A program made the position numbers and the translations under genes. A stretch of 64,000 nt of DNA, taken from positions 1,504,001 to 1,568,000 of the forward strand of contig CAVXXK010000001.1 of the NCBI GenBank assembly GCA_963765675.1. Reading direction: 5' to 3'. A model generated the notes under the pieces. That model did no database searches, was not told the origin of the DNA, and saw only the letters and a list, made by a program, of their open reading frames with translations. This DNA comes from an uncultured delta proteobacterium (lineage in GTDB: Bacteria > Desulfobacterota > Binatia > Binatales > Binataceae). Below are positions 35,063-50,107 of the stretch, piece by piece; the stretch's first letter is position 1, and every line of letters starts with the position of its first letter.

Positions 35063-37450
35063 TCATTTCGAGCTCCGCGTTTTCGCGATCATCGCCACCA
35101 CTCGCTCCGGCGTGAGCGGAATCTCGTTGACGCGGGCGCTGAACGGCGCCAGCGCGTCCGCCACCGCGTTGGCAATCGCGCCCGGCGGCGCGATCGCTCC
35201 GCCTTCACCCATCCCCTTTATGCCGCCCAGCGTATATGGAGACGGCGATTCGAGATGCGCAATCTCGACGCGCGGAACGTCAGTCGCTGTCGGCGCCAGG
35301 TAGTCCATCAAGGTGCCGGTGAGAATCTGGCCGTCGCTGTCATACACGATCTGCTCGAGCATCGCGCTGCCAATTCCCTGCGCTACGCCGCCTTGGATCT
35401 GTCCGTCAACTACCATCGGATTGATCATCGTCCCGCAATCTTCGACCACGATGTACCGATCCAGCCGCACCTGTCCGGTGCCGGTATCAACCTCGACGGT
35501 GGCGATATGGGTCGAGTTCGCATGCGTCATCAGCGGAGGTTCATAAGTCTCCGCAACTTCGAGGCCCGGCTGCTCGCCGGCAAAGTTTCCGGTCGGTGGA
35601 AGATAGGCCAGGCGCGCGACCTCGGCGAGAGGCATGACAATCTCGCCGCGGGACTTGCGCACTACGGCGCCATCGCGCAGTTCCAGATGGTCGGTAGGAA
35701 TCTCGGTTGCGCGCGACGCGATACGCAAAATCTTTTCGCGCATCACCGCTGAAGCTTTCATCGTCGCGCCTCCTCCGACCACCGCACTGCGGCTGCCGCC
35801 GGTGCCCCATCCGTAGGGAATCTTCGCGGTATCGCCGAACTCGATTCGCACGTCGTCGAGCGGAACTCCCAGTTCGTCCGCCGCGATCTGCGCGAAGGTT
35901 GTCTGATGGCTCTGGCCGTGCGAATGCGTCCCCACCAGCACGGTAACCTTGCCCGCGCGATCGACGCGCACGGTCGCGGTCTCGTAACCGCCCATCCGCA
36001 TGCCGAGCATCATCCATCCCGCCGTGCTGGGCGCGGTGGTTTCGATGTACGACGCGATTCCCACGCCGATATATCTCCCGCGGGTGCGTAGCTCTGCCTG
36101 CCGTGCGCGAAATTTTTCGTAGCCGAGCATCTCGAGTGCCTTGGCCAGCGCCTCGCGATGGCTGCCGCTTTCGATCTGGAAGCCGACGACGTTGGTATAA
36201 GGATGATCTTCGAGGCGGATCATGTTGCGCATCCGCAGTTCCGCCGGATCGATCGCCATGCGTTGCGCGGCGATGTCGATCAGCCTTTCCATCACGAACA
36301 CCGCGATCGGCATCCCGACTCCGCGATACGCGCCGACGGTCGCCTTGTTGGTCGCGATTGAGATCGCCTCGAACTGGTAGGCTGGAATCTTGTAAGGACC
36401 GGGCATCGCGGCCGCCGCGACTCCGGCTTCGAGCCCGGAGCTGAACGGGAACTCGGTGTACGCGCCGATATCGCTGAGGCATCGCGCGCGCAGGCCGAGA
36501 ATCATCCCGTCGCAGTCGAGCGCGAGGCTGGCGGTTACGATCTGATGCTTGGCGTGCAACGACGCGATTAGATTTTCGCGCCGGTCCTCGATCCACTTGA
36601 CCGGCCGGCCGATGATACGCGCCGCGTGCGCGGTGACGATCTCTTCAGGGAACACGTGAGCCTTGAGGCCGAAGCCTCCGCCGACGTCGGGCGCGATCAC
36701 ACGGACGCGATTTTCCGCCGCGCCGAGAATCGCCGCCAGGTTGGTGCGCAGGATATGCGGGATCTGCGTCGACGACCACATCGTCAGCGAATCCGCCGCT
36801 GAGTCATATGAGGCGAGGCATCCGCGCGGCTCGATCGGCAGCGCCGCATGCCGCCCGGTCAGGAACCGCTCCGAGATCACGACGTCAGCCGAATCGAACG
36901 CGCGCGCCACCGGTCCAAACTCCGCGCCCGCGGATTGCAGGATATTGTCGCCCCATTCCTGATGCACCAGCGGAGCGCCGGATTCGAGCGCGCGCTCCAT
37001 GTCGGCGACGGCCTCGAGCGGATCGTAATCGACCTCGACCAGTTCGGCCGCGTCTTCGGCCAAGTAGCGATCCTCGGCGATGATCGCCGCAACCGCCTCG
37101 CCGACAAAGCGGACTTTTTCATGCGTGAGGACCGGCCACTCGACCAGCTTATGCGGAGGCGACGGCATCGCAGGATCCCATTCGAGCCGCAGCGCGCGCG
37201 AAACCTCCGGCAGGTCTTCGTAAGTGAGAACTGCGAGCACGCCCGGACTCTCCCGCGCCGCCGTCGCGTCGATTTTGATTATGCTCGCGTGCGCGTATGG
37301 GCTGCGCACGAACGCGATTGAGACGGTTCCCGGCAGGCGCACATCATCGACGAATTGCGATTTTCCCAGCAGGACGCGCGCGTCCTCAACCCGGCGCACA
37401 CGCGCCCCCACCAGCTTGCCCGTTCCGGCCGGTGTCTGCACCGTTGCCAT
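35063..37450 (-). CDS. Xanthine dehydrogenase family molybdopterin subunit (CoxL-like, not form I CODH)
   Basis: RVEDAR, VGGGFGLK, AYRGVG, SHGQSH, GQIQGGVAQG and KGMGEGG. Confidence 0.9.
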   Translation of the reverse strand: MATVQTPAGTGKLVGARVRRVEDARVLLGKSQFVDDVRLPGTVSIAFVRSPYAHASIIKIDATAARESPGVLAVLTYEDLPEVSRALRLEWDPAMPSPPHKLVEWPVLTHEKVRFVGEAVAAIIAEDRYLAEDAAELVEVDYDPLEAVADMERALESGAPLVHQEWGDNILQSAGAEFGPVARAFDSADVVISERFLTGRHAALPIEPRGCLASYDSAADSLTMWSSTQIPHILRTNLAAILGAAENRVRVIAPDVGGGFGLKAHVFPEEIVTAHAARIIGRPVKWIEDRRENLIASLHAKHQIVTASLALDCDGMILGLRARCLSDIGAYTEFPFSSGLEAGVAAAAMPGPYKIPAYQFEAISIATNKATVGAYRGVGMPIAVFVMERLIDIAAQRMAIDPAELRMRNMIRLEDHPYTNVVGFQIESGSHREALAKALEMLGYEKFRARQAELRTRGRYIGVGIASYIETTAPSTAGWMMLGMRMGGYETATVRVDRAGKVTVLVGTHSHGQSHQTTFAQIAADELGVPLDDVRIEFGDTAKIPYGWGTGGSRSAVVGGGATMKASAVMREKILRIASRATEIPTDHLELRDGAVVRKSRGEIVMPLAEVARLAYLPPTGNFAGEQPGLEVAETYEPPLMTHANSTHIATVEVDTGTGQVRLDRYIVVEDCGTMINPMVVDGQIQGGVAQGIGSAMLEQIVYDSDGQILTGTLMDYLAPTATDVPRVEIAHLESPSPYTLGGIKGMGEGGAIAPPGAIANAVADALAPFSARVNEIPLTPERVVAMIAKTRSSK

Positions 37451-37942
37451 CTATTTGGCTCCGCGCGTCGCGGCGGCGCGCCTGATCGCGGCAACGATAT
37501 TCGCGTACCCGGTGCATCGGCACAGGTTTCCCGAGATCGCCTCGCGCACCTGCTGCTCGTCGAGATTCGGTTCGTCCTTGAGCAACTCGCGCGCGGTCAT
37601 GAGGAAGCCCGAAGTGCAGAAGCCGCACTGCAGCGCATGCTCCTCTCGAAACGCTTCCTGCAGCGGACTCAGGTTGCCGTCGCACGCGAGGCCCTCAATC
37701 GTTTCAAGCGCGCAGCCTTCCGCCTGAACCGCAAGCATCAGGCATGACCGCACGCTCTGGCCGTCGAGCATCACGGTGCAAGCGCCGCATACGCCGTGCT
37801 CGCATCCAAGATGAGTTCCGGTGAGCCCCAAATCCTCCCGGATGAAATCGGCCAGTAGCGTGCGCACGCCGACTTCTCGCTCGACCTCGACGCCATTGAT
37901 GACGATGCGGATCGTGCGCCGCTCAGTGAAGGATTCAGGCAT
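37451..37942 (-). CDS. (2Fe-2S)-binding subunit (CoxS-like)
   Basis: GCEHGVCGACT, QCGFC and NLCRCTGY. Confidence 0.92.
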   Translation of the reverse strand: MPESFTERRTIRIVINGVEVEREVGVRTLLADFIREDLGLTGTHLGCEHGVCGACTVMLDGQSVRSCLMLAVQAEGCALETIEGLACDGNLSPLQEAFREEHALQCGFCTSGFLMTARELLKDEPNLDEQQVREAISGNLCRCTGYANIVAAIRRAAATRGAK

Positions 37943-38819
37943 CGATCGCCTCTTCAACTTGCGCAGGACCGTAGCATTGCCGAAGCGCCCGCTCGGTCAG
38001 CACGCGAACCAGATGACGGCGAAATTCGGCGCTCGCGTGTAGATCTGAGGAGGGATCGGCCTCGGTTGCGGCCATTTCGGCGGCCTCGTCGATGGCGCGA
38101 TTCGCGTCGCTGGTCGATTTAAGCGCCACGCCGGCGCTCGCGGCGACAACCGGAGTAGGGTTCGCGCCACCGATGCTGATTTCTGCGGAGACGCAACGAT
38201 TGCGCGAATCAAAGCCAATCGCGCAGGCGACGGCGACAATCGCGAAATCGCCGCGGCGGCGGCAGACCTCTGCGAACCCGAATCGGGTTGTGGGCGGCGC
38301 AATCGGGAAACGAATTTCCGTCAGGATTTCGTCGGGCTCGATCGCGGAAGTCATAGGACCGGAAAAAAATTCGCGCGCACCGATCGTCCGCGCTCCACGC
38401 ATCGAACGCGCGACGAGTTTCGCGTCGAGCAGAATCGCGAGCAGCGGCCATTCTGCGGCGGGATCGGCGTGGACGAGCGAGCCGCCGATCGTTCCGCGGT
38501 TGCGAATTGCGAGATGCCCGATCTCCGCCGCCGCCCGCGCGAGTATCGGAAGCGCCGCGCGGATTGCTGGCGAGGTCTCGAGCGTGCGATGGCGCGTCAG
38601 CGCACCGATTCTTGTTTCGCCGCGTTCGATCGTGATGAAAGAGAGTTCCGCGATTCGGTTGATATCGATGAGCGCAGAGGGCGTAGTCACGCGCAGGTTC
38701 AGCATCGGCATCAGGCTCTGTCCGCCCGCCAGGAGCTTCGCGCCCGGCTCCTCGGCGAGCATCCGCATCGCTTCGTCGAGCGTCTGTGGACACGCGTATG
38801 TAAAGCGTGGAGGTTTCAG
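37935..38819 (-). CDS. FAD-binding subunit (CoxM-like), probable CTG start
   Basis: AGGQSLMPMLNLR and RNRGTIGGS...ADPAAE. The conserved N-terminus (M)KPPRFTY begins at CTG 38819, after a GGAGA RBS. Confidence 0.88.
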   Translation of the reverse strand: MKPPRFTYACPQTLDEAMRMLAEEPGAKLLAGGQSLMPMLNLRVTTPSALIDINRIAELSFITIERGETRIGALTRHRTLETSPAIRAALPILARAAAEIGHLAIRNRGTIGGSLVHADPAAEWPLLAILLDAKLVARSMRGARTIGAREFFSGPMTSAIEPDEILTEIRFPIAPPTTRFGFAEVCRRRGDFAIVAVACAIGFDSRNRCVSAEISIGGANPTPVVAASAGVALKSTSDANRAIDEAAEMAATEADPSSDLHASAEFRRHLVRVLTERALRQCYGPAQVEEAIDA

Positions 38820-39884: not shown

Positions 39885-40664
39885 TCACCGAATTTCTTCT
39901 GAGAAGCGCAGAGTTCCCTTCTTCAAACCTTCGAGGACAACTTCAACGCCCCCGCTGCGCATCATCCATTCGAGGCGATGGTCTCGGTACTGGCGCTTGA
40001 AAGCGCCCGATTCGAGCATCGCCGGGAGCGCGTCCATCGAGCCGGCGAATTGTTCGGCCGCCGCGACGGTTTTCTGCACACTCGGCCGCCGCTCGATTCG
40101 TTCGAGCGTTTTCGCGAGCGGCGAGCCCGCTTTCGGCGGTATTCCCCACACCGCGGAGCCGTGCAGGTAAGGATAAACGGACAGGTCGGCGCGGCCGAAC
40201 GATGCGCCGTTGAACCATTCGTGCGCACCGAGCTCGCGCTGCAGCCACGCGTGGATTCCCGCGGTCTGCTCGGTCGCGCGCGCTTCGAGCTTTGCCGCCG
40301 CCGCGCCGGTCACGCGCCGCCACGCGCGCACTTCCATCAGGCCCCAGTTGATCGCTTCGTAATAGGTGTCGCAAATCTCCTCGATCATTCTGATGCGAGC
40401 GCGCTCACGCGGCGCGGGCGGCATCAGGGGAGGCTGCGGCCATTTCTCGTCGATATAATCTAGGATTATCGTCGAGTCGAAAATCGCGAGTCCCTCGTCG
40501 ACCAGCGCCGGAACTTCCAGGCGCGGATTAGTCTCGCCGAATTTGGTTGGAGCGCCGCTGAACGCGTCGGGAATCTCGGTCTCGAACTCGAGGTTCTTTT
40601 CGTGCAGCGCGATTTTTACCTTCTGCACGTATGGGGAAAACGGATGCTCGTAGAGTTTAATCAT
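39885..40664 (-). CDS. Glutathione S-transferase family protein
   Basis: LYEHPFSPYVQKV, NPRLEVPAL, DSTII and FGRADL. Confidence 0.9.
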   Translation of the reverse strand: MIKLYEHPFSPYVQKVKIALHEKNLEFETEIPDAFSGAPTKFGETNPRLEVPALVDEGLAIFDSTIILDYIDEKWPQPPLMPPAPRERARIRMIEEICDTYYEAINWGLMEVRAWRRVTGAAAAKLEARATEQTAGIHAWLQRELGAHEWFNGASFGRADLSVYPYLHGSAVWGIPPKAGSPLAKTLERIERRPSVQKTVAAAEQFAGSMDALPAMLESGAFKRQYRDHRLEWMMRSGGVEVVLEGLKKGTLRFSEEIR

Positions 40665-40724: not shown

Positions 40725-41243
40725 ATGAGCGGCCAAATGCACGTTTACCGGCGCGGTTTGATTGGTCTCATGGCGGCGATCGTGACGCTTGCGATCCCGT
40801 TCGCCGCACCCGTAGTCGCCGGCGATATCGGCAGCGTCATCAACAACCCTCCCGCCGCTCCGACCAACATTCACATCATCCACGTCAAGGATCTGGCCAA
40901 TCTGATCGCCGATCCGAATGCGCACGTGCGTATCTATGATGCCAACGTTCCGAGCGTCCGCAAAAGCGAGGGGATGATCCCCGGGGCCCGGCCGCTCACC
41001 TCGTCGGATCATTACGACGTCGCCGACGAGCTTCCCAGCAATCACAACGCCAAGCTGGTTTTCTACTGTCATAATCTGCAATGAACGGCGTCGGATGACG
41101 CCGCCCGGCGGGCGGCGCAAGCTGGTTACACGGACCTCAGCGAGATGAAGGACGGAATCTCAGGTTGGCGCGCGGCGGGGGAGCCGGTCCAGATGCCCAA
41201 CGGCAATATCGTGCGCGTGGCGACACCTCCGTCGGGTTCCTAA
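40725..41243 (+). CDS. Exported rhodanese-domain protein, probable selenoprotein (UGA at 41082-41084)
   Basis: Signal peptide, then GMIPGA and LVFYCHNLQ-UGA-TASDDAARRAAQAGY...DGISGWRAAG. The rhodanese fold continues in frame to TAA at 41241-41243. Confidence 0.82.
41099..41117 (+). promoter_or_regulatory. Putative bacterial SECIS hairpin
   Basis: CGCCGCCC-GGC-GGGCGGCG, with a G-starting loop about 23 nt downstream of the UGA. Confidence 0.55.
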
Positions 41244-41294
41244 GCTCCGCGCCGTATAATTTTTCCCCCGCCTGCGATCGCATATAGTTGCGCG

Positions 41295-43106
41295 GTGCGA
41301 ACCGACACTCCTGCTGGCTCGTCCGCGCCCGAAGCCTCAGCTGCTCCAATACGCGAGCTGACGATTCGCGCGATCCTGCTCGGCGTTGTGCTCGCGCTGA
41401 TTCTCGGCGCCGCAAACGCGTACCTCGGGATGTACGCGGGGATGACCGTCTCTGCGAGTATTCCGGCTGCGGTCATCTCGATGGCGATCCTGCGTATCCT
41501 GGGTGGCGCCACGATTCTCGAAAACAACGTCGTGCAGACGATAGCGTCGGCAGGAGAGGCGGTCGCGGCGGGAGCGATCTTCACTTTTCCCGCGATCGTG
41601 ATCCTGGGCAATCACGGCGCGCTTCCTTACCTCGAAGTGACCGCGCTTAGCGCCGCGGGCGGCACGATGGGCGCGCTGCTGGTGGTCTTCTTGCGCCGCG
41701 CATATGTCGTCGATGAGCGCTTGCCGTTTCCCGAGGGCGTTGCCTGCGCAGAGGTCCTCCGCACCGGCCAGGACGCGGCGCAGGTCGCGCCGCTCGTGTG
41801 GGGCGGAATCCTCGCCGCGATTCTCAAATCCGCGCAGGACATGCTCGGGATCGTTCCCGCCTCGCTATCGGGTGCGAGATGGATCGGCGGCGCGGCGCTC
41901 TCGGGTTCGATCGATATGTCGGCGGCGCTGCTTGGCGTCGGCTATATCATCGGGCCGCGAATCGCGATTTTGGTCTTCGGCGGAGGCGCGTTCGCCTGGA
42001 TCGTCGCGATTCCCTTCCTGATGCTGACGCATCCGGGCGCCGCGACCTCGCACGATGCCGCGACCGCCGCGGCGCAGCTCTGGAGCGCGCAGGTGCGCTA
42101 CCTCGGCGTCGGCGCGATGCTGACCGGCGGAGTCGTCACGCTCTGGCGGCTGCGTACGCGGATCGGCGCGGCGCTTGCGGATAGCCTCACGGTGCTGCGG
42201 TCGCGCGAGGTGATTGTTCGCTCGCGCGAAGACACCGACCTATCGGCGCGCGCAATTCTTGCTGCGGTCGCCTTGGTCGTCCCGGTGATTTTCGCGTTGT
42301 GCCTGATTCTCTCCGGAAGCGTCTGGCTTAGCCTGTCGCTCGCGATCGTTCTGACGCTGGTCGGATTTTTTGCGACCGCCGTGGCTGGTTATCTGACTGG
42401 AATAGTCGGTGCGTCGAACAATCCGGTCTCGGGCGTGACGGTGATCGTGCTTTTGGGTATCGCTCTCTATCTGCGCGCGGTCGGAGTCGAGGGCGCAAGC
42501 GTCGGACCGCGGCTGGCGATTCTGGCCGGCGCCGTGGTCTGCACCGCGGCCGCGATGGCGGGTGATTCGCTGCACGATCTGGCGACGGGGTATCACGTCG
42601 GCGCGACTCCGCGCGCGCTCGAAATTGGCGTGCTGATCGGCGCGCTGGCGGCCTCGGTCGTGATGGCGCCGATTCTGAATTTGCTCATCGCAGGATACGG
42701 AATCGCCGGCACTGCTACTGCCAAAGCCGGCGCGCTCGCGGCGCCCCAGGCCTTCCTGATGGCGAAAGTCGCGCAGGGCGTCTTCAGCGGCGGACTGCCG
42801 TGGGGAACGATCGCGGCCGGCGCGGGACTCGCCGCGATCCTCGCGGTGAGCGACGCAGCCCTCGCGTCGGCGGGCTCTGCGTGGCGCACGCCGATCATGC
42901 CGGTGGCGATTGGACTCTACCTTCCGTTCGGATTGAGCGTCGCGATCTTGCTCGGCGCGCTGATCCGCGCACGCTTCGGCCATCAAGAAGGCGAACTCGG
43001 CGGCCCGGGCCTGCTCTTCGCCGCTGGAATGGTCGCGGGGGAAGCGCTGATGGGCGTCGCGACCGGCGCGATGGTGACCTCGGGCATCCGCCTGCCACTG
43101 TTCTGA
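41295..43106 (+). CDS. OPT family oligopeptide transporter
   Basis: ELTIRA, NAYLG..AGMTVSASIPAAV, ENNVVQT.ASAG, FPEG and SNNPVSG. Confidence 0.92.
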   Translation: MRTDTPAGSSAPEASAAPIRELTIRAILLGVVLALILGAANAYLGMYAGMTVSASIPAAVISMAILRILGGATILENNVVQTIASAGEAVAAGAIFTFPAIVILGNHGALPYLEVTALSAAGGTMGALLVVFLRRAYVVDERLPFPEGVACAEVLRTGQDAAQVAPLVWGGILAAILKSAQDMLGIVPASLSGARWIGGAALSGSIDMSAALLGVGYIIGPRIAILVFGGGAFAWIVAIPFLMLTHPGAATSHDAATAAAQLWSAQVRYLGVGAMLTGGVVTLWRLRTRIGAALADSLTVLRSREVIVRSREDTDLSARAILAAVALVVPVIFALCLILSGSVWLSLSLAIVLTLVGFFATAVAGYLTGIVGASNNPVSGVTVIVLLGIALYLRAVGVEGASVGPRLAILAGAVVCTAAAMAGDSLHDLATGYHVGATPRALEIGVLIGALAASVVMAPILNLLIAGYGIAGTATAKAGALAAPQAFLMAKVAQGVFSGGLPWGTIAAGAGLAAILAVSDAALASAGSAWRTPIMPVAIGLYLPFGLSVAILLGALIRARFGHQEGELGGPGLLFAAGMVAGEALMGVATGAMVTSGIRLPLF

Positions 43107-43818: not shown

Positions 43819-44319
43819 CTATTTTCCGAGTTTCCGCAATTGGCGCGGCGTCAGCATCCACCGCAGTTGCGCGCTGCCGCGCTCGGAGGCCGCCGGAACT
43901 TCCAGCGCCATAAGGCCGCCTTTCTTGAGGGTGATGTTCGCGCCTTTTGGCGCCGATGTAAGCAGCGTCGAGGCGATCCCGCTGAGTTGCGGCTCGTGCC
44001 CGACGATCATCACGTGGCGATGCTTCGCAAACGGACGCAGCGCCGCGATCGCTTCTTGCGGGGCGACGCCGGTCGCTAACGCAGGAACCACTTGCGGCGG
44101 CGGATCGTTCGCGTAGACCGCAGCAACGATCTCTGCGGTTTCCGTGGCGCGCGCGAGTGGGCTGGTCAGAATTACGTCGAACTTGAGCTTCAGCGAGCGC
44201 ATTCCATCGGCGCTGTCGCGAAGTTTCTCGCGTCCGCGCGCGGTCAGCTTGCGTGCGCCGTCGTCGCCGCCCGGGGGCGCGTCTTCCGCGATTCCGTGTC
44301 TTAGAATGTACAAAATCAT
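43819..44319 (-). CDS. sixA: Phosphohistidine phosphatase SixA
   Basis: LRHGIA, SPLARA..TA and VGHEP. Confidence 0.88.
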   Translation of the reverse strand: MILYILRHGIAEDAPPGGDDGARKLTARGREKLRDSADGMRSLKLKFDVILTSPLARATETAEIVAAVYANDPPPQVVPALATGVAPQEAIAALRPFAKHRHVMIVGHEPQLSGIASTLLTSAPKGANITLKKGGLMALEVPAASERGSAQLRWMLTPRQLRKLGK

Positions 44320-45290
44320 TTTTCAGATTCCGTCTTTTCGAGGTTTGCCTTCGCGTGATGCGCCGAATGGCCATGGCGCCGCGTCTCTTCGATTGCATCT
44401 TTCATAGTCTCGCCGCGCTCGAATTTGTGCCATGCCTTGACGCATCGGCGCGCGAGCTTGCGCTCGCGCCGCCTGAGCGACTCGGCCATCGCTCCGGCCG
44501 CGAGCACCGCCTCGGCCGGCGCGCCCTCGGCGTTCGCGTACGCGATGAGCCATGCGATCGCGATGATCGTGTCGTTAAACGAACCCAGCAGGTCTTGCAG
44601 CGCCTCGAGCCGCGCGAGCGCCTTGCGATGACGCTTGCCCCCCAGAGCCGCCAGCATCTCGAGCGTGTATCGCGTCCGCTTGACCCGCACCCGCAGGCGA
44701 TGGACCACCTCGGGCATCGAGGATTCGGTAAGCAGCGCGCCCGCGCGTGACATCGCACGCACCATCCGCGCCAGAATTCCCGCTGCCGCCTGTCCGAGCG
44801 TTGCCGAAGCGGAAATCCGAATCCGCGGTTTCCGCAGCCGCGCCATCGTGGTGTTGAATCTCGCCGATTCCAGAACCTCGCCCAACGTGGCGAGCGCCAG
44901 CGTGCGCGATACTTCGAGCTCCGAATAGAGCGGCGGCAGCATCGCGGCGAGCTTCGGCTCGAGTTTCGGGGCGCGGGCGCGAATAGTATCGCCGATCACG
45001 TCGCATTCGCGAACCTTGCCCGCGCTCTGGGCCAGCCACGGCAAATCCCGGCGCAGAAGCGCGGCCTGTCCGGCGTGAATCACTCCAGAGAACATCTCGA
45101 TCGCCGCGCGCAAGCGGCGCGACGCGACGCGTAGCTGATGGATCGGTTCGATCTCGCCGGCGATCGCCGCGGCGCGCTCGCGTTCCAGCGCGTCCGCGCC
45201 AAACGCGAGCGCGAGCGTTGCGGCTGCTCCAAGGCTGTCCTCAGGCGCGAGCCGCAGCTTGCGCGATTCCGGCTGGACCTCAGCCTCCAC
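44316..45290 (-). CDS. CHAD domain protein (polyphosphate-binding family)
   Basis: IHQLRVASRRLR, VRECDV, HRLRVRVKRTRY and LQDLLG..ND. Confidence 0.88.
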   Translation of the reverse strand: MEAEVQPESRKLRLAPEDSLGAAATLALAFGADALERERAAAIAGEIEPIHQLRVASRRLRAAIEMFSGVIHAGQAALLRRDLPWLAQSAGKVRECDVIGDTIRARAPKLEPKLAAMLPPLYSELEVSRTLALATLGEVLESARFNTTMARLRKPRIRISASATLGQAAAGILARMVRAMSRAGALLTESSMPEVVHRLRVRVKRTRYTLEMLAALGGKRHRKALARLEALQDLLGSFNDTIIAIAWLIAYANAEGAPAEAVLAAGAMAESLRRRERKLARRCVKAWHKFERGETMKDAIEETRRHGHSAHHAKANLEKTESEK

Positions 45291-45293
45291 GCG

Positions 45294-46040
45294 TCATTCC
45301 TTGCGGAGGGAGTTCGATGAGGCCGCTGCGGAGCGTGCAGGTTCTGCGATTTTCAGATAGTCGGCGATATGCTTTTTGAGGTCGCTCTGAATTTCCTCAA
45401 TCGGCGCGCGCGCGTCGACCGAAACGAAGCCAAACTCCGCCGAGAGGTGCCGATATTCCTCGATCAGCCTGCTCTGGTAGCGCTTGAACGAGTCGAACAG
45501 ATCGGTGCCGAGCGCCAGATGCATCCCCGATTCCCAGTAATCCATACCCTTGCCGTGCACCACGCGCGGAATCAGCGTTTCGACATCGATATCGAGGTAG
45601 AGCACCAGGTCCGGCACCAGCGCGACGCCGAACAGCTCGCGGCTCCAGTCCGGATCGGCGCCCATCACGTTGTTGCGCGCAAACGCCGTGTACATGTACC
45701 GGTCCGCGATTACAATAAAGCCCGCCTGCAGCGCGGGCAGAATCTCGTGCTCGAGCCGATCGGCAAAGTCGGCGGCGTAAAGCAGGCTGAAGGTGTTGAC
45801 GGTGAGCTGATGCCCCGCCTTGGCTTCGTTTATGGTTTCAGAGAGCAGCGGCGAGCGCGTCCATCCGGTGTTGCTGACCGCGTAGCCTTCGAGCTCGAGC
45901 CACGGGCGCAGCAGATCGATCTGGGTCGAGCGGCCGACGCCGTCGGTCCCCTCGATCGCGATCAGATGGCCCGGCAGGCGCTTCTCCTTCAGATAGGGCA
46001 GCCCGTGCCCATACCAGGTCTTAGCGCGTTTTGATCGCAT
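45294..46040 (-). CDS. Thymidylate-kinase-like protein B, with variant P-loop GTDGVGRST
   Basis: IAIEGTDGVGRSTQ, DFADRL, ADRY and PDLVLYL. Confidence 0.8.
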   Translation of the reverse strand: MRSKRAKTWYGHGLPYLKEKRLPGHLIAIEGTDGVGRSTQIDLLRPWLELEGYAVSNTGWTRSPLLSETINEAKAGHQLTVNTFSLLYAADFADRLEHEILPALQAGFIVIADRYMYTAFARNNVMGADPDWSRELFGVALVPDLVLYLDIDVETLIPRVVHGKGMDYWESGMHLALGTDLFDSFKRYQSRLIEEYRHLSAEFGFVSVDARAPIEEIQSDLKKHIADYLKIAEPARSAAASSNSLRKE

Positions 46041-46866
46041 GATTGTTGTTTGCCCGCTGGCGATCGTAATCGCGCAGCACGTCTTGCACCATCTTGCGGA
46101 ATCCGCGCTGCTGCAGAGGAATCTCGCCGGTCGCGTCGATTGTGCGCAGTTCGAACTCGTTGGTTAGCTGGTCGTAAATCTCGAGCACGCGGCTTTGAAA
46201 CAGGCGAAAGCTCTCGACCGGATCGGTGGACAGCCCCACGTCCATCCCGGCTTCATGATACTTGAGCTTGGCGCGGCCCGAGAGCAGGCGCTCGAGCGAT
46301 ATTTCGATCGGTACGCGGAAATACAGCGTCAGGTCGGGCTTGAGCGCGAACTTGTACACCGAACGAACCCAATCGGGATCGACTCCGCGCGCCACGTCGC
46401 GCGCGAACGCGGTGAACACATAGCGGTCCGCCAGCACCACCATCCCGGCCTTCAGCGGCGGCAGAATCTGGTAGGTCAGGCGATCGGCGAAATCGACTGC
46501 GTGCAGCAGGCTGAAGGTCGTGGGCGTCAGCAGATTTTTCTTCTTGCCCCGGCTCATCGACCGCCGCACCAGGCGCGACGAATTCCATTCGGTGAAGATG
46601 ACCGGATAGCCGCGCGCACGAAGCCATCGCTCGAGCAGCATGAGCTGGGTCGATTTTCCCGACCCGTCGATTCCTTCGACGGCGATGAGGCGGCCCGGAT
46701 ATCCGTGCGGTGCGCTCAGCAGGCTTTGCGCCGGTTCGGGTCGCGCGGACTGCGTCGGAGAGGACGCCGCGGCCTGCACTCCATTCTGCGCGGCGCTTAA
46801 CGCGCCAGCGTCACCTGGCGGTCCAGCAAGCGTGACAGCAGATCCGTCCTTCTCTCGCATGTCCAT
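46021..46866 (-). CDS. Thymidylate-kinase-like protein A (start uncertain; this start overlaps the ppx end by 70 nt)
   Basis: IAVEGIDGSGKSTQ, DFADRL, ADRY and PDLTLYF. Confidence 0.8.
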   Translation of the reverse strand: MDMREKDGSAVTLAGPPGDAGALSAAQNGVQAAASSPTQSARPEPAQSLLSAPHGYPGRLIAVEGIDGSGKSTQLMLLERWLRARGYPVIFTEWNSSRLVRRSMSRGKKKNLLTPTTFSLLHAVDFADRLTYQILPPLKAGMVVLADRYVFTAFARDVARGVDPDWVRSVYKFALKPDLTLYFRVPIEISLERLLSGRAKLKYHEAGMDVGLSTDPVESFRLFQSRVLEIYDQLTNEFELRTIDATGEIPLQQRGFRKMVQDVLRDYDRQRANNNHAIKTR

Positions 46867-48311
46867 AGTTCGAGATCCGCTTTTTCCCTGTTTGAATCGA
46901 CCCCGATAATAAGCCGTCCGGGTGAGTAACGCACCTCGATATTTTTGACCACACCGAAGTGGCTGCGGTCCAGCGCGTCGGCGACGCGCAAAATCGCGGC
47001 GAACGCGCGCACCGTCTTGCGCTGCGCAGGAGCCAACGCGCTCAGCTCGGGAGAATCGAGCTTGGGCGCCTGTTTGCGATGCCCGCGCGCGGCCTGCGCT
47101 ACGACTTCGATCTCGTCTCTATCGAAGCCAAACAATTCCGCATTCTTTATTAGATAATAAGAGTGCCGGTTGTGTCGATCATGATCGATCGCGTGCCCGA
47201 TATCATGCAACAGCGCCGCGTACTCCAGCAACTCGCGGCTCTTACGCGACAGTCGCAAAACCGGCGCGGTCGCGTCGAACAGCTTGAGCGCGAGTTTCGC
47301 AACCTGTTTGCCATGCGCATTGGCTCCGGAAAACCGGGCGGCGAGCGCCTTCACCGAACGCCGCCGCGCGTCCTCGGCCGTATGGCGAAACGCGGTGCGC
47401 ATCTGGCTGAGAATCAGCCCCTCGCGCAGCGCCCAAGTACAGGCGACCAGCTCAGGCGCTCCCGAGCGCCGCACGATAAAATCCACCAGCGCTCCCGCCG
47501 CCGGCATCAGGTCAACGCGCTTCGCATCCATTCCCGGCAGTTCCGCACGCAGCGCCGCGTTGGCCGACGCGAGGTCGCGCGCGAGGCCCGAAATCTCCTC
47601 CGCCGACGCGCTCGCGCCGTGCAACCTGCCCAGCTCTTCGCCGCGCGCGGCGCGCGCCATCGCGACCAGAGTGTTGATCGTGCCCGAGGTTCCTACGGCG
47701 CGGACGATTTTCGCCTTGCGCGCCTGGTGCAGGAACACCCCGGCTTCGTGCTCGATATGCTTTTCCATGTGCCGAAGCTGCGCGCGGCTGGGTGGATCTT
47801 CGGTCAGATAGCGCTCCGCAAGCCGCGCCGCTCCCAGCTTCACGCTATGCATCCACAGCGGCTCGCCGTCTTGCACCAGCACCAGCTCGACGCTACCGCC
47901 GCCGACGTCGACCAGCAGATGCGGTCCGCCGTCAAGTCCGAGAGCGTGCCGTGCGGCGATAAAGATCAGGCGCGCCTCTTCGGTTCCGGAGATCACCTGC
48001 ACCGCGATCCCGGTCTCGCGCTTGATGCGCCGGATAAACGCGGTCCGGTTGCGCGCCTCACGCACCGCGCTGGTGGCGACCGCGCGCATCCTGTCCACCT
48101 TGCGCACGCGCGCGAGCCTTCCGAAGTTCGTAAGCGATCGCACGGCCAAGTCCATCGCTTCGTCGGTGAGCTTGCCGGTGGTGAAGGAGCGGCGCCCCAG
48201 GCGCACCATCTCCTTGACCCGATCGACCACCTCGACGCGGCCCTCGCGGGTGGCGTCGGCTACGATCATATGGACGGAGTTTGATCCGACGTCGATCGCG
48301 GCAAGCCGCAT
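46797..48311 (-). CDS. ppx: Ppx/GppA exopolyphosphatase with a C-terminal HD domain
   Basis: AAIDVGSNS, ATSAVREA.N, EEARL, DVGGGSVE, LREG and LLHDIG. Confidence 0.92.
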   Translation of the reverse strand: MRLAAIDVGSNSVHMIVADATREGRVEVVDRVKEMVRLGRRSFTTGKLTDEAMDLAVRSLTNFGRLARVRKVDRMRAVATSAVREARNRTAFIRRIKRETGIAVQVISGTEEARLIFIAARHALGLDGGPHLLVDVGGGSVELVLVQDGEPLWMHSVKLGAARLAERYLTEDPPSRAQLRHMEKHIEHEAGVFLHQARKAKIVRAVGTSGTINTLVAMARAARGEELGRLHGASASAEEISGLARDLASANAALRAELPGMDAKRVDLMPAAGALVDFIVRRSGAPELVACTWALREGLILSQMRTAFRHTAEDARRRSVKALAARFSGANAHGKQVAKLALKLFDATAPVLRLSRKSRELLEYAALLHDIGHAIDHDRHNRHSYYLIKNAELFGFDRDEIEVVAQAARGHRKQAPKLDSPELSALAPAQRKTVRAFAAILRVADALDRSHFGVVKNIEVRYSPGRLIIGVDSNREKADLELWTCERRTDLLSRLLDRQVTLAR

Positions 48312-48505
48312 GAAAGGATCGTAGCCGCAAAAGTTCGCGAAGTCATCATCGTGCAAAGAAAAATGAAAAAAATTGCATGATAAAGATTTCGCGTCCGCGC
48401 GCGAAGCATCCGCGTAGGATGTTACGGTAGGGTTACACGATCGCGCGCCGATGCCTCGGCGAGCGCGCTTCGCTAGGATAGTCCGGTTACTCTTCTGGCA
48501 ATCAA

Positions 48506-50107
48506 TTGGGTGCGGCAAGCAAAGCGGTAATAGATCACGTCGAGTCCGGACCCGCGACGCACAAGTGGCTGATCGCGATCGCGGTGATGCTCGGCACCAC
48601 GCTCGAGGTGCTCGACACCTCGATCGTCAACGTCGCGTTGCCGCATATGCAGGGCACTTTCTCAGCCAGCGTCGACGAAATCGCGTGGGTGCTGACGAGC
48701 TACCTGGTTGCCAACGGGATCATGATTCCGATGACCGGGTGGATCTCCGCCCGCTTCGGCCGCAAGCGCTATTTCCTGACCTCGGTCACCGTATTCGTGG
48801 TCGCATCCGCGATGTGCGGCGCGGCGCAATCGCTCGATCAGATGGTTTTGTTCCGACTGATCCAGGGCGCGGCCGGCGCCGCGATGATCCCGTCATCGCA
48901 AGCGATCCTGATGGAGACCTTTCCGCCCAACGAGCAGCAACTCGCGATGGCGATGTGGGGAGTCGGCCTGATGGTCGCGCCGATCATGGGTCCAACGCTG
49001 GGCGGATGGATTACCGACAACTGGAACTGGCGCTGGAATTTCTACATCAACATCCCGGTCGGAACTCTCGCCTTCCTGATGGTCACGTGGTTCGTGCACG
49101 ATCCCGACTATCTGCGCGCCCATCGCGCGCGCGGCGGCAAAGTCGACTACCTCGGGATGCTGCTGCTGGTGGTCAGCCTCGGACTCATGCAGATCGTGCT
49201 CGATCGCGGCCAGCGCGCGGATTGGTTTAATTCGGCCTGGGTCGTGTACGCGACCGGAATTTCGGCCACCGCGGCGGTGTGGCTCGTGCTGCACGAGTTG
49301 CGCTTCTCGGAGCCGATCCTGGATTTGCGCATCCTTGCAATTCCGGTGTTCAGTTTTTCGGTTACGCTGATCGTTGCGATGAGCTTTGCGCTCTACGGCA
49401 CCGGACTGCTCAACCCGATCTTCCTGCAGGAACTCCTGGGCTACAACGCATGGAAGGCCGGACTGGTGCTCGCGCCGCGCGGACTCGGGACGATGGTCGC
49501 GATGCTGCTGGTCGGACAGCTCGCGCGCGCACGCCTGGACACTCGCCCGCTCATCGGCCTTGGCTTCGTCCTGATGGCTGCGGCGTTGTGGTCGATGTCG
49601 GGATGGAATCTGCAAGTCAGCATGTGGGTCGTCATATGGCCCAGCGTGGTGATGGGCCTGGGGATGGGCATGATCTTCCCGACCCTGTCGGCCACCACGC
49701 TGTCGTGTGTCACGCGCGAGCGCATCGGGTACGCGGCGAGCCTGTACAACCTGATGCGCAACGCCGGCGCCGCGATCGGCATCTCGTACATGACCACCGC
49801 GCTGGTCAATCACGAGCAGACGCATCAGTCGTACCTGGTCGAGCATTTCTCAGTTTTCGACGCCTGGAAGATGAGCGCCGCCGGAGCGCACACTCCGGGC
49901 GCGATTCCTTTCCACTACCTGCCCCAGATGATCACCGGCCAAAAGCAGGGCCTCGGGATGATTTATGGAATGATCCAGTCGCAAGCCGCGATGCTCTCCT
50001 TCAACGACATCTACCGCGTGCTGATGTTCATGATGATCATCCTGGTCCCGAGCTTCCTGCTGCTCCGCCGCCCTGATACTTCCAGCGGCACCTCGATGGC
50101 GCATTAG
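48506..50107 (+). CDS. DHA2 (EmrB/QacA) MFS efflux permease
   Basis: LDTSIVNVALP, RFGRKR and GPTLGGWITDNWNWRW.F.IN.P. Confidence 0.92.
   Translation: MGAASKAVIDHVESGPATHKWLIAIAVMLGTTLEVLDTSIVNVALPHMQGTFSASVDEIAWVLTSYLVANGIMIPMTGWISARFGRKRYFLTSVTVFVVASAMCGAAQSLDQMVLFRLIQGAAGAAMIPSSQAILMETFPPNEQQLAMAMWGVGLMVAPIMGPTLGGWITDNWNWRWNFYINIPVGTLAFLMVTWFVHDPDYLRAHRARGGKVDYLGMLLLVVSLGLMQIVLDRGQRADWFNSAWVVYATGISATAAVWLVLHELRFSEPILDLRILAIPVFSFSVTLIVAMSFALYGTGLLNPIFLQELLGYNAWKAGLVLAPRGLGTMVAMLLVGQLARARLDTRPLIGLGFVLMAAALWSMSGWNLQVSMWVVIWPSVVMGLGMGMIFPTLSATTLSCVTRERIGYAASLYNLMRNAGAAIGISYMTTALVNHEQTHQSYLVEHFSVFDAWKMSAAGAHTPGAIPFHYLPQMITGQKQGLGMIYGMIQSQAAMLSFNDIYRVLMFMMIILVPSFLLLRRPDTSSGTSMAH

Follow-up and report, generated by a model that had tools for sequence, protein, structure and literature searches.

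A predicted exported rhodanese selenoprotein with a Cys-x4-Sec loop, encoded next to an OPT-family transporter gene in Binataceae

Genes and features at the locus

The locus described here consists of a gene for a rhodanese interrupted by an in-frame TGA codon, an OPT-family transporter gene downstream of it, and a divergently oriented GST-family gene upstream (Table 1); all coordinates without a contig name refer to the window, which is the whole 64,000-nucleotide stretch of DNA that was analysed. Direct reading of the sequence placed the ATG codon at 40725, the TGT codon for Cys115 (41067-41069), and the TGA codon (41082-41084) in one frame, with an alternative start, the ATG at 40737, being used by the database entry P0005. 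In the contigs of four sequencing runs, no base of 41007-41265 was covered. The TGA codon is located five codons after that of the canonical rhodanese cysteine, and the loop sequence, with selenocysteine (Sec, U) at the TGA, is F-Y-C-H-N-L-Q-U-T-A-S. An earlier, preliminary description of this DNA had noted that the frame continues past the TGA for 52 codons and completes a rhodanese domain, and both observations held: the frame after the TGA begins TASDDAARRAAQAGYTDLSEMKDGISGWRAAGEPV and remains open for 52 codons up to the TAA codon at 41241-41243, and the match of the read-through product to the Pfam Rhodanese model (PF00581; 37.9 bits vs. a cut-off of 22.2) covers residues 54-150, with the TGA inside the match. 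When the product was aligned by profile with the solved rhodaneses YgaP, 6mxv, and 2hhg, F-Y-C lined up with their catalytic cysteine, and the loop, as judged from the HMM alignment only, is apparently two residues longer than in the solved rhodaneses.

Table 1. Positions of the genes and sequence features at the rhodanese locus in the window
Feature	Position	Strand	Basis or remark
GST-family gene	39885..40664	-	Pfam GST_N_3; divergent, 60 bp from the rhodanese ATG
Sec-rhodanese CDS (putative)	40725..41243	+	172 codons including UGA-Sec; TAA stop at 41241-41243
Predicted Sec-type signal peptide, residues 1-32	40725..40820	+	Hydrophobicity heuristic and N-termini of orthologues
Catalytic Cys115 codon, TGT (F-Y-C)	41067..41069	+	Aligns with solved rhodaneses
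UGA, predicted Sec, residue 120	41082..41084	+	Codon conserved in relatives; Cys in full-length homologues
Putative bSECIS hairpin, stem GCCGCCC/GGGCGGC (7 bp), loop GGC (3 nt)	41100..41116	+	Fit to consensus; covariation
OPT-family oligopeptide transporter gene	41295..43106	+	Pfam OPT; TIGR00733, 504.5 bits vs. a cut-off of 182.5

A signal peptide had also been proposed for the N-terminus, and the details of the sequence agree with this proposal, since two arginines are followed by an 18-residue hydrophobic core (Kyte-Doolittle value of 2.7 for the best 13-residue stretch) and by V-V-A before G-D, with cleavage predicted after V-V-A. Using the hydrophobicity heuristic, a signal-like segment of the same kind (basic, hydrophobic, AxA) was found in 65 of the 68 family members that could be evaluated. 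The twin arginines of the window copy are absent as a conserved feature in the orthologues, and therefore export by the Tat pathway is unlikely. The protein is a single-domain rhodanese, the export of which is predicted from its N-terminal sequence.

The OPT gene starts 52 bp after the rhodanese stop codon on the same strand, a terminator scan revealed no terminator-like site between the two genes, and they are probably co-transcribed. Behind the rhodanese gene, an OPT permease gene is present in 16 of the 20 loci of relatives and in 47 of the 80 loci retrieved from the at least 119 matches of the DNA pattern scan described below, and it accompanies Sec and Cys forms alike. The 33 OPT-less loci among these 80 differ in their neighbours, among which no further partner was seen to recur. 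The preliminary description had instead pointed to the GST-family gene as the partner of the rhodanese gene across about 60 bp. This divergent arrangement is present in the window, but the conserved partner is the OPT permease, and conservation of the linkage to the GST gene does not extend beyond the genus except in one further genome. The window also contains a cluster for a molybdenum hydroxylase of the CO-dehydrogenase/xanthine-dehydrogenase type on the minus strand (35063-38768), comprising genes for a large MoCo-binding subunit, a 2Fe-2S subunit, and an FAD subunit. Also on the minus strand, at 44316-48518, a CHAD-domain gene, two thymidylate-kinase-like genes, and a Ppx/GppA-HD phosphatase gene form a run that may be a polyphosphate-related cluster. 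A neighbouring gene for an MBL-fold protein was considered as a persulfide dioxygenase and rejected, NCBIfam giving just weak lactonase-like matches for it.

Conservation of the TGA codon and its cysteine counterparts

If the UGA codon is decoded as selenocysteine, relatives are expected to carry either the same TGA or a cysteine codon at this position, as the preliminary description had pointed out, and this is what was observed. A search with the read-through protein against 61 related genomes, including the genome of the window itself, yielded 37 places at E <= 1e-19, of which 28 have an in-frame TGA. When their DNA was read, the TGA was found at the identical codon in 28 of the 28 TGA-bearing relatives, and the corresponding codon is TGC or TGT in eight of the nine TGA-free places read; four same-genus orthologues have TGC. 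The genome of one of the 28 (G010) is unpublished, and none of the conclusions relies on it. A search of the protein collection gave 119 matches at E <= 1e-5, 57 of them full-length, and in all 51 full-length homologues that were aligned both loop cysteines are invariant. The other 62 matches stop at the residue preceding the TGA, so that the expectation that annotation pipelines would cut this gene short has been confirmed on a large scale; some of these truncated entries are named "hypothetical protein" (Candidatus Binataceae) and one is named "flagellin-like protein".

The distribution of the family was further analyzed by scanning the DNA of species genomes with the degenerate pattern F-Y-C-x4-TGA-x-A-x3-A-A-R-R-A, for which at least 119 matching stretches (species genomes) were found. 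All 80 loci that were retrieved from these at least 119 matches belong to the same family, with the frame running on past the TGA, and 77 of the 80 have U-[T/M/S/L/I/G]-A-S after the loop; the three exceptions have U-x-A-C (L052 and L129) or are missing the N-terminal part. Among the matches listed, most record titles name Binatia or Binataceae, many of them labelled delta proteobacterium, and further carriers are Candidatus Acidiferrales, Terracidiphilus, Myxococcales, Bdellovibrionota, and Candidatus Sysuimicrobium. The C-x4-U rhodanese is common in Binatia, which are little-studied soil and peat bacteria. Two cultured organisms, Anaeromyxobacter oryzae Red232 and Anaeromyxobacter sp. PSR-1, are also among the matches listed, and the family is experimentally reachable because these strains carry the TGA form.

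The sequence after the TGA has the properties of a coding sequence. In 26 of 26 Sec forms, the 35 codons following the TGA are free of stop codons, and outside the hairpin described below the entropies at the first, second, and third codon positions are 0.58, 0.53, and 1.24 bits, respectively. These results bear on an alternative, namely that the TGA is a genuine stop, that the 119-residue protein is the real product, and that the 52 codons beyond it are untranslated or are the remains of a decayed gene. This is how the locus is treated by gene callers, which end the open reading frame at the TGA, and by the 62 truncated database entries. However, a stop codon of this kind would have to be conserved at one and the same codon across sequences down to approximately 40% identity, in front of a frame that has stayed open with coding periodicity in all 26 Sec forms and at a site that is occupied by cysteine in homologues, and in the truncated product the rhodanese domain would lack its C-terminal third. 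We therefore regard a genuine stop as extremely improbable. On this comparative evidence, it is highly probable that the UGA codon of the rhodanese family encodes selenocysteine.

A candidate SECIS element downstream of the UGA codon

Bacterial insertion of selenocysteine was expected in the preliminary description to involve a hairpin just downstream of the UGA. According to the main text of a review on prokaryotic selenoproteomes from 2026 (PMC13188914), the bSECIS consensus consists of a stem of 4-16 bp and a loop of 3-9 nt with a G in its first two positions, located with 16-37 nt between the UGA and the loop and having a minimum free energy (MFE) of -7.5 kcal/mol or lower. The 17-nt hairpin at 41100-41116 agrees with this published consensus in every respect: it begins 15 nt past the UGA, the distance from the UGA to the loop is 22 nt, the energy is -13.7 kcal/mol, and the loop is of the form G-G/U-N. 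A hairpin of the bSECIS type is therefore present, but it is not the first small stem encountered after the UGA. That proximal stem, of 6 bp (GGCGUC/GACGCC, 41089-41104), shares three bases with the hairpin and would compete with it, and the MFE fold of the 76 nt of the window around the UGA, which is no more stable than shuffled sequences (z = -0.05), prefers the proximal stem. The proximal stem was rejected as the SECIS element since it is not conserved across the family: just 78.9% of its cells are paired, one of its pairs is unpaired in 56 of 87 sequences, and 72 of 500 shuffles score as well.

The hairpin at 41100-41116, in contrast, has been maintained. Over 95 sequences (87 distinct), 97.4% of the stem cells are paired. 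At two pairs, both at synonymous positions, compensatory changes were observed among the 87 distinct sequences: pair 27-39 is C-G in 79, U-A in four, U-G in three, and G-C in one, and pair 30-36 is C-G in 85 and G-C in two, with zero unpaired cases at either. The covariation score was reached by none of 500 shuffles, and slid controls all scored far lower, with the reservation that kinship among the sequences inflates the covariation counts. In addition, 79 of the 95 hairpin rows come from the pattern scan (at least 119 matches), the pattern of which fixes eight of the 17 hairpin bases, and therefore only the third-codon positions provide free evidence in the 80 pattern loci. In the sample obtained by protein search, which was not selected by DNA pattern, the complete 7-bp stem was found in 23 of 26 Sec forms vs. 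none of seven Cys forms, and the third-codon entropy in the 26 Sec forms is 0.355 bits within the stem vs. 1.24 bits outside it. The Cys forms retain five or six of the seven pairs because the stem overlies the conserved A-A-R-R-A codons in G+C-rich genomes, and some of the pairing is therefore dictated by the encoded amino acids.

Selenocysteine machinery of the genome

The preliminary description had named selA, selB, selC, and selD as genes to be looked for. All four were found in the genome (4.5 Mb in 16 contigs), selA being frameshifted in this assembly. The gene for tRNA-Sec is present in two copies (L001 and L002) on contig C1, at 720125-720216 on the minus strand and at 835479-835570 on the plus strand, both with the anticodon TCA and with 95 of 96 bases identical; each of five same-genus genomes has a single tRNA-Sec match above 70 bits. 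The selD gene, which has an in-frame TGA of its own (...C-K-A-A-G-U-A-G-K-L...), adjoins selB (C1:995003-997912; L011 and L019).

The presence of this machinery also bears on the possibility that the UGA is read in some other way, either by near-cognate insertion of tryptophan or cysteine or through a genome-wide reassignment of UGA. Near-cognate tRNAs are known to allow a low level of read-through in bacteria. However, other genes of this genome, for instance two that encode further rhodanese domains, simply end at a TGA, a hairpin at the SECIS distance has been under selection, the components for Sec insertion are at hand, and the site pairs with cysteine in homologues; decoding other than as selenocysteine is accordingly scarcely credible.

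More weight has to be given to the state of selA. The matches to selA are in two frames, owing to a 1-nt insertion relative to the same-genus genomes G003 and G005 at approximately 1,402,590 of contig C1 (L009). The insertion is in a non-homopolymer context just before the region F-S-G-D-K-L-L-G-G-P-Q, which goes out of frame and which we take to be the PLP-lysine site. A genuine insertion would leave this strain unable to make selenocysteine, and only a truncated rhodanese fragment would be produced. The family would then be Sec-decoding, but in this strain translation would end at the UGA and leave a non-functional 119-residue fragment, for which the two frames of selA and the non-homopolymer context of the insertion can be adduced. 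However, single indels commonly arise as errors when genomes are assembled from metagenomes, four of the five same-genus genomes have an uninterrupted selA (in the fifth, the gene is divided between two contigs), and the two tRNA-Sec genes, selB, selD with its TGA, the SECIS element of the rhodanese gene, and the frame downstream of the UGA are all undamaged. Because the other Sec components and the signal of the rhodanese gene itself are intact, an assembly error is the likelier explanation of the insertion than a real loss of Sec synthesis, and we consider it quite unlikely that the rhodanese UGA is left undecoded in this strain. Due to the selA frameshift, our confidence in decoding by this strain is nevertheless somewhat lower than that for the family. 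In sum, the reading of the gene in the preliminary description as encoding an exported Sec-rhodanese is supported by the Cys or TGA codons of the homologues, the hairpin, the Sec genes (with the reservation concerning selA), and the signal-like N-termini.

Exchange of selenocysteine and cysteine

The relation between Sec and Cys forms was analyzed with a tree of 38 family members (139 columns, with the Sec/Cys column masked), for which a quick search was used, and its detail is therefore tentative. The four same-genus Cys forms make up one clade (support 99) that is nested among Sec forms, the next branches being the protein of the window and that of G003 (support 95). Tentatively, the well-supported branches of the tree require at least four switches between Sec and Cys. 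The four genomes of the genus that have the Cys form still carry selA and tRNA-Sec, and thus it was not a loss of the machinery that compelled the replacement of Sec by Cys. In this Cys clade, A-A-R-R-A is written in other codons, and the stem is short of one pair. These recent Sec-to-Cys replacements within one genus, with the RNA signal decaying in step, form a clean natural series. In several other genera, a Cys-x4-Cys paralogue is located in tandem with a Sec form (L038 in G018, L039 in G036, L174 in G024, L098, and L111), and such pairs offer a natural comparison of Sec and Cys inside one genome.

A possible function of the Cys-x4-Sec loop

According to the mechanism that we propose, SelB carrying Sec-tRNA(Sec) would bind the hairpin at 41100-41116 and insert selenocysteine at the UGA at 41082-41084, so that a 172-residue precursor would be produced instead of a 119-residue fragment. 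The precursor would be sent to the periplasm by its Sec-type signal peptide, yielding a mature protein of approximately 140 residues with a single rhodanese domain. There, Cys115 and Sec120 could form a reversible selenenylsulfide: sulfane sulfur, selenium, or an oxidised substrate would be accepted by Cys115, and the resolving nucleophile would be Sec120. A DsbD-type thiol relay in the periplasm might then reduce the oxidised loop again in trans. The two-chalcogen loop may be a redox centre because TsoB, a selenoprotein compared below, fuses the same loop to a DsbD-type electron conduit, and a DsbD-family gene is present elsewhere in the genome. With respect to selenium, a classical rhodanese can carry selenium derived from selenite and glutathione, according to an entry in the reference list of PMC5877670. 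This specific selenenylsulfide mechanism of Cys115 and Sec120 is possible, and we put it forward as tentative.

The frequent presence of an OPT permease gene just behind the rhodanese gene points to a possible link between the reaction and the uptake of a peptide-like, possibly thiol-bearing compound. In its most extended form, the proposal would be that the rhodanese and the OPT permease of these soil bacteria constitute a two-gene module reaching from the periplasm to the cytoplasm, in which a sulfur or selenium compound, such as a persulfide or the selenotrisulfide of a thiol peptide, is captured on the selenenylsulfide loop and handed to the permease; the selenoprotein would then serve for scavenging chalcogens, and the repeated switching between Sec and Cys would track the supply of selenium. 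This extended proposal is speculative and rather unlikely to be correct.

Comparison with known selenoproteins

The protein has its closest counterpart among described proteins in TsoB, the original description of which is reportedly that of Haft and Tolstoy in 2025. In the NCBIfam collection, no model was found to reach its cut-off on the C-x4-U rhodanese, and the best match was the TsoB model NF045694 (40.8 bits vs. a cut-off of 805, residues 98-161 only). Of 301 genomes that were sampled across the same phylum, 20 contain TsoB genes with two in-frame TGA codons, and these two-TGA loci include L187-L190 (genomes G225, G110, G312, and G069). In a BLASTP comparison with a TsoB of the same phylum, residues 103-169 aligned onto residues 103-169 without gaps (36% identity, E = 7e-12), which places C115 of the C-x4-U rhodanese on U115 of TsoB and U120 on U120, and the context F-Y-[C/U]-x4-U-x-x-S-D-x-A-A-R is common to both. 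Furthermore, TsoB also has a hairpin starting 15 nt past its second UGA, in which a comparison of four loci revealed a compensatory A-U/G-C change, and the rhodanese domains of both proteins are predicted to be outside the cytoplasm. The gapless alignment and the matching hairpin indicate that the Sec site of the C-x4-U rhodanese is homologous to the second Sec of TsoB and that the SECIS elements are very likely homologous as well. In TsoB, one hairpin may have to serve both UGA codons because they are just five codons apart.

In PMC13188914, TsoB is a rhodanese/DsbD fusion-like selenoprotein (NF045694, "rhodanese form 5", UxxxxU), and the two proteins are different in their overall organization. 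TsoB, with approximately 570 residues, two of them Sec, has a membrane anchor at its N-terminus, a DsbD-like domain in the membrane, and a thioredoxin-like domain at its C-terminus, whereas the C-x4-U rhodanese is a free-standing protein of 172 residues with a predicted cleavable signal peptide and a single predicted Sec, the first position of the loop being Cys, and is without the membrane domain and the U-x4-U motif. No Tso operon is located near the C-x4-U rhodanese gene, its neighbour being the OPT permease gene.

Five rhodanese-like selenoprotein forms are catalogued in Table 1 of PMC13188914, namely UxxS, UxxG twice, CxU, and UxxxxU, and an entry for C-x4-U was not found among the rhodanese forms of that table. 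Form 1 is assigned there to PF00581 with the motif UxxS, with a record from Geobacter sulfurreducens. The U-T-A-S of the loop in the window fits this string, and on this likeness, which is one of motif strings alone, the C-x4-U rhodanese and form 1 probably have a common Sec site. Longer, fused relatives of the C-x4-U rhodanese were searched for and none was found, a result that carries little weight. Forms 2 and 4 (UxxG) and form 3 (rhodanese_LYCAU, NF041203, CxU), as given in the main text of PMC13188914, are similar to the C-x4-U rhodanese in having a rhodanese domain with Sec in or at the active-site loop. However, Sec is at C-x-U in form 3 and replaces the catalytic cysteine in forms 2 and 4, and the NF041203 score of the C-x4-U rhodanese, 28.7 bits, is well below the cut-off of 115.

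Among proteins with cysteine in the loop, the exported Cys-x4-Cys rhodaneses, which are annotated as "rhodanese-like domain-containing protein", match the Sec form in length, signal peptide, loop, and OPT neighbour and are up to 82% identical to it; they differ from it by Cys in place of Sec and by the lack of the full 7-bp hairpin. Membership in the PQQ_CXXCW family (TIGR03865) was considered and rejected (33.9 bits vs. a cut-off of 128). Elsewhere in the genome, an MBL-fold/rhodanese fusion (C1:2045805-2046893, L184) and a rhodanese that is anchored in the membrane and has the loop C-S-G-G-E-C (C15:4775-5482, L045) are encoded; the rhodanese regions C1:2046558-2046893 and C15:5162-5482 were rejected as selenoproteins, the TGA being an ordinary stop at the end of the domain.

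What is already known, therefore, is that rhodaneses can contain Sec, in five forms, and what is new is a free-standing, exported, OPT-linked rhodanese of the C-x4-U type; this newness is set against the main text of PMC13188914, and the supplementary tables of the surveys cited might include members of the family. Since rhodanese selenoproteins have already been catalogued in five forms, the gain is incremental. It adds to the bacterial selenoproteome a family that is widespread and has been consistently mis-annotated. Through a common Sec site and insertion hairpin, the family links the free-standing Cys-x4-Cys rhodaneses to TsoB, and the C-x4-U rhodanese would be a simpler system than TsoB in which to study the function of the two-chalcogen rhodanese loop.
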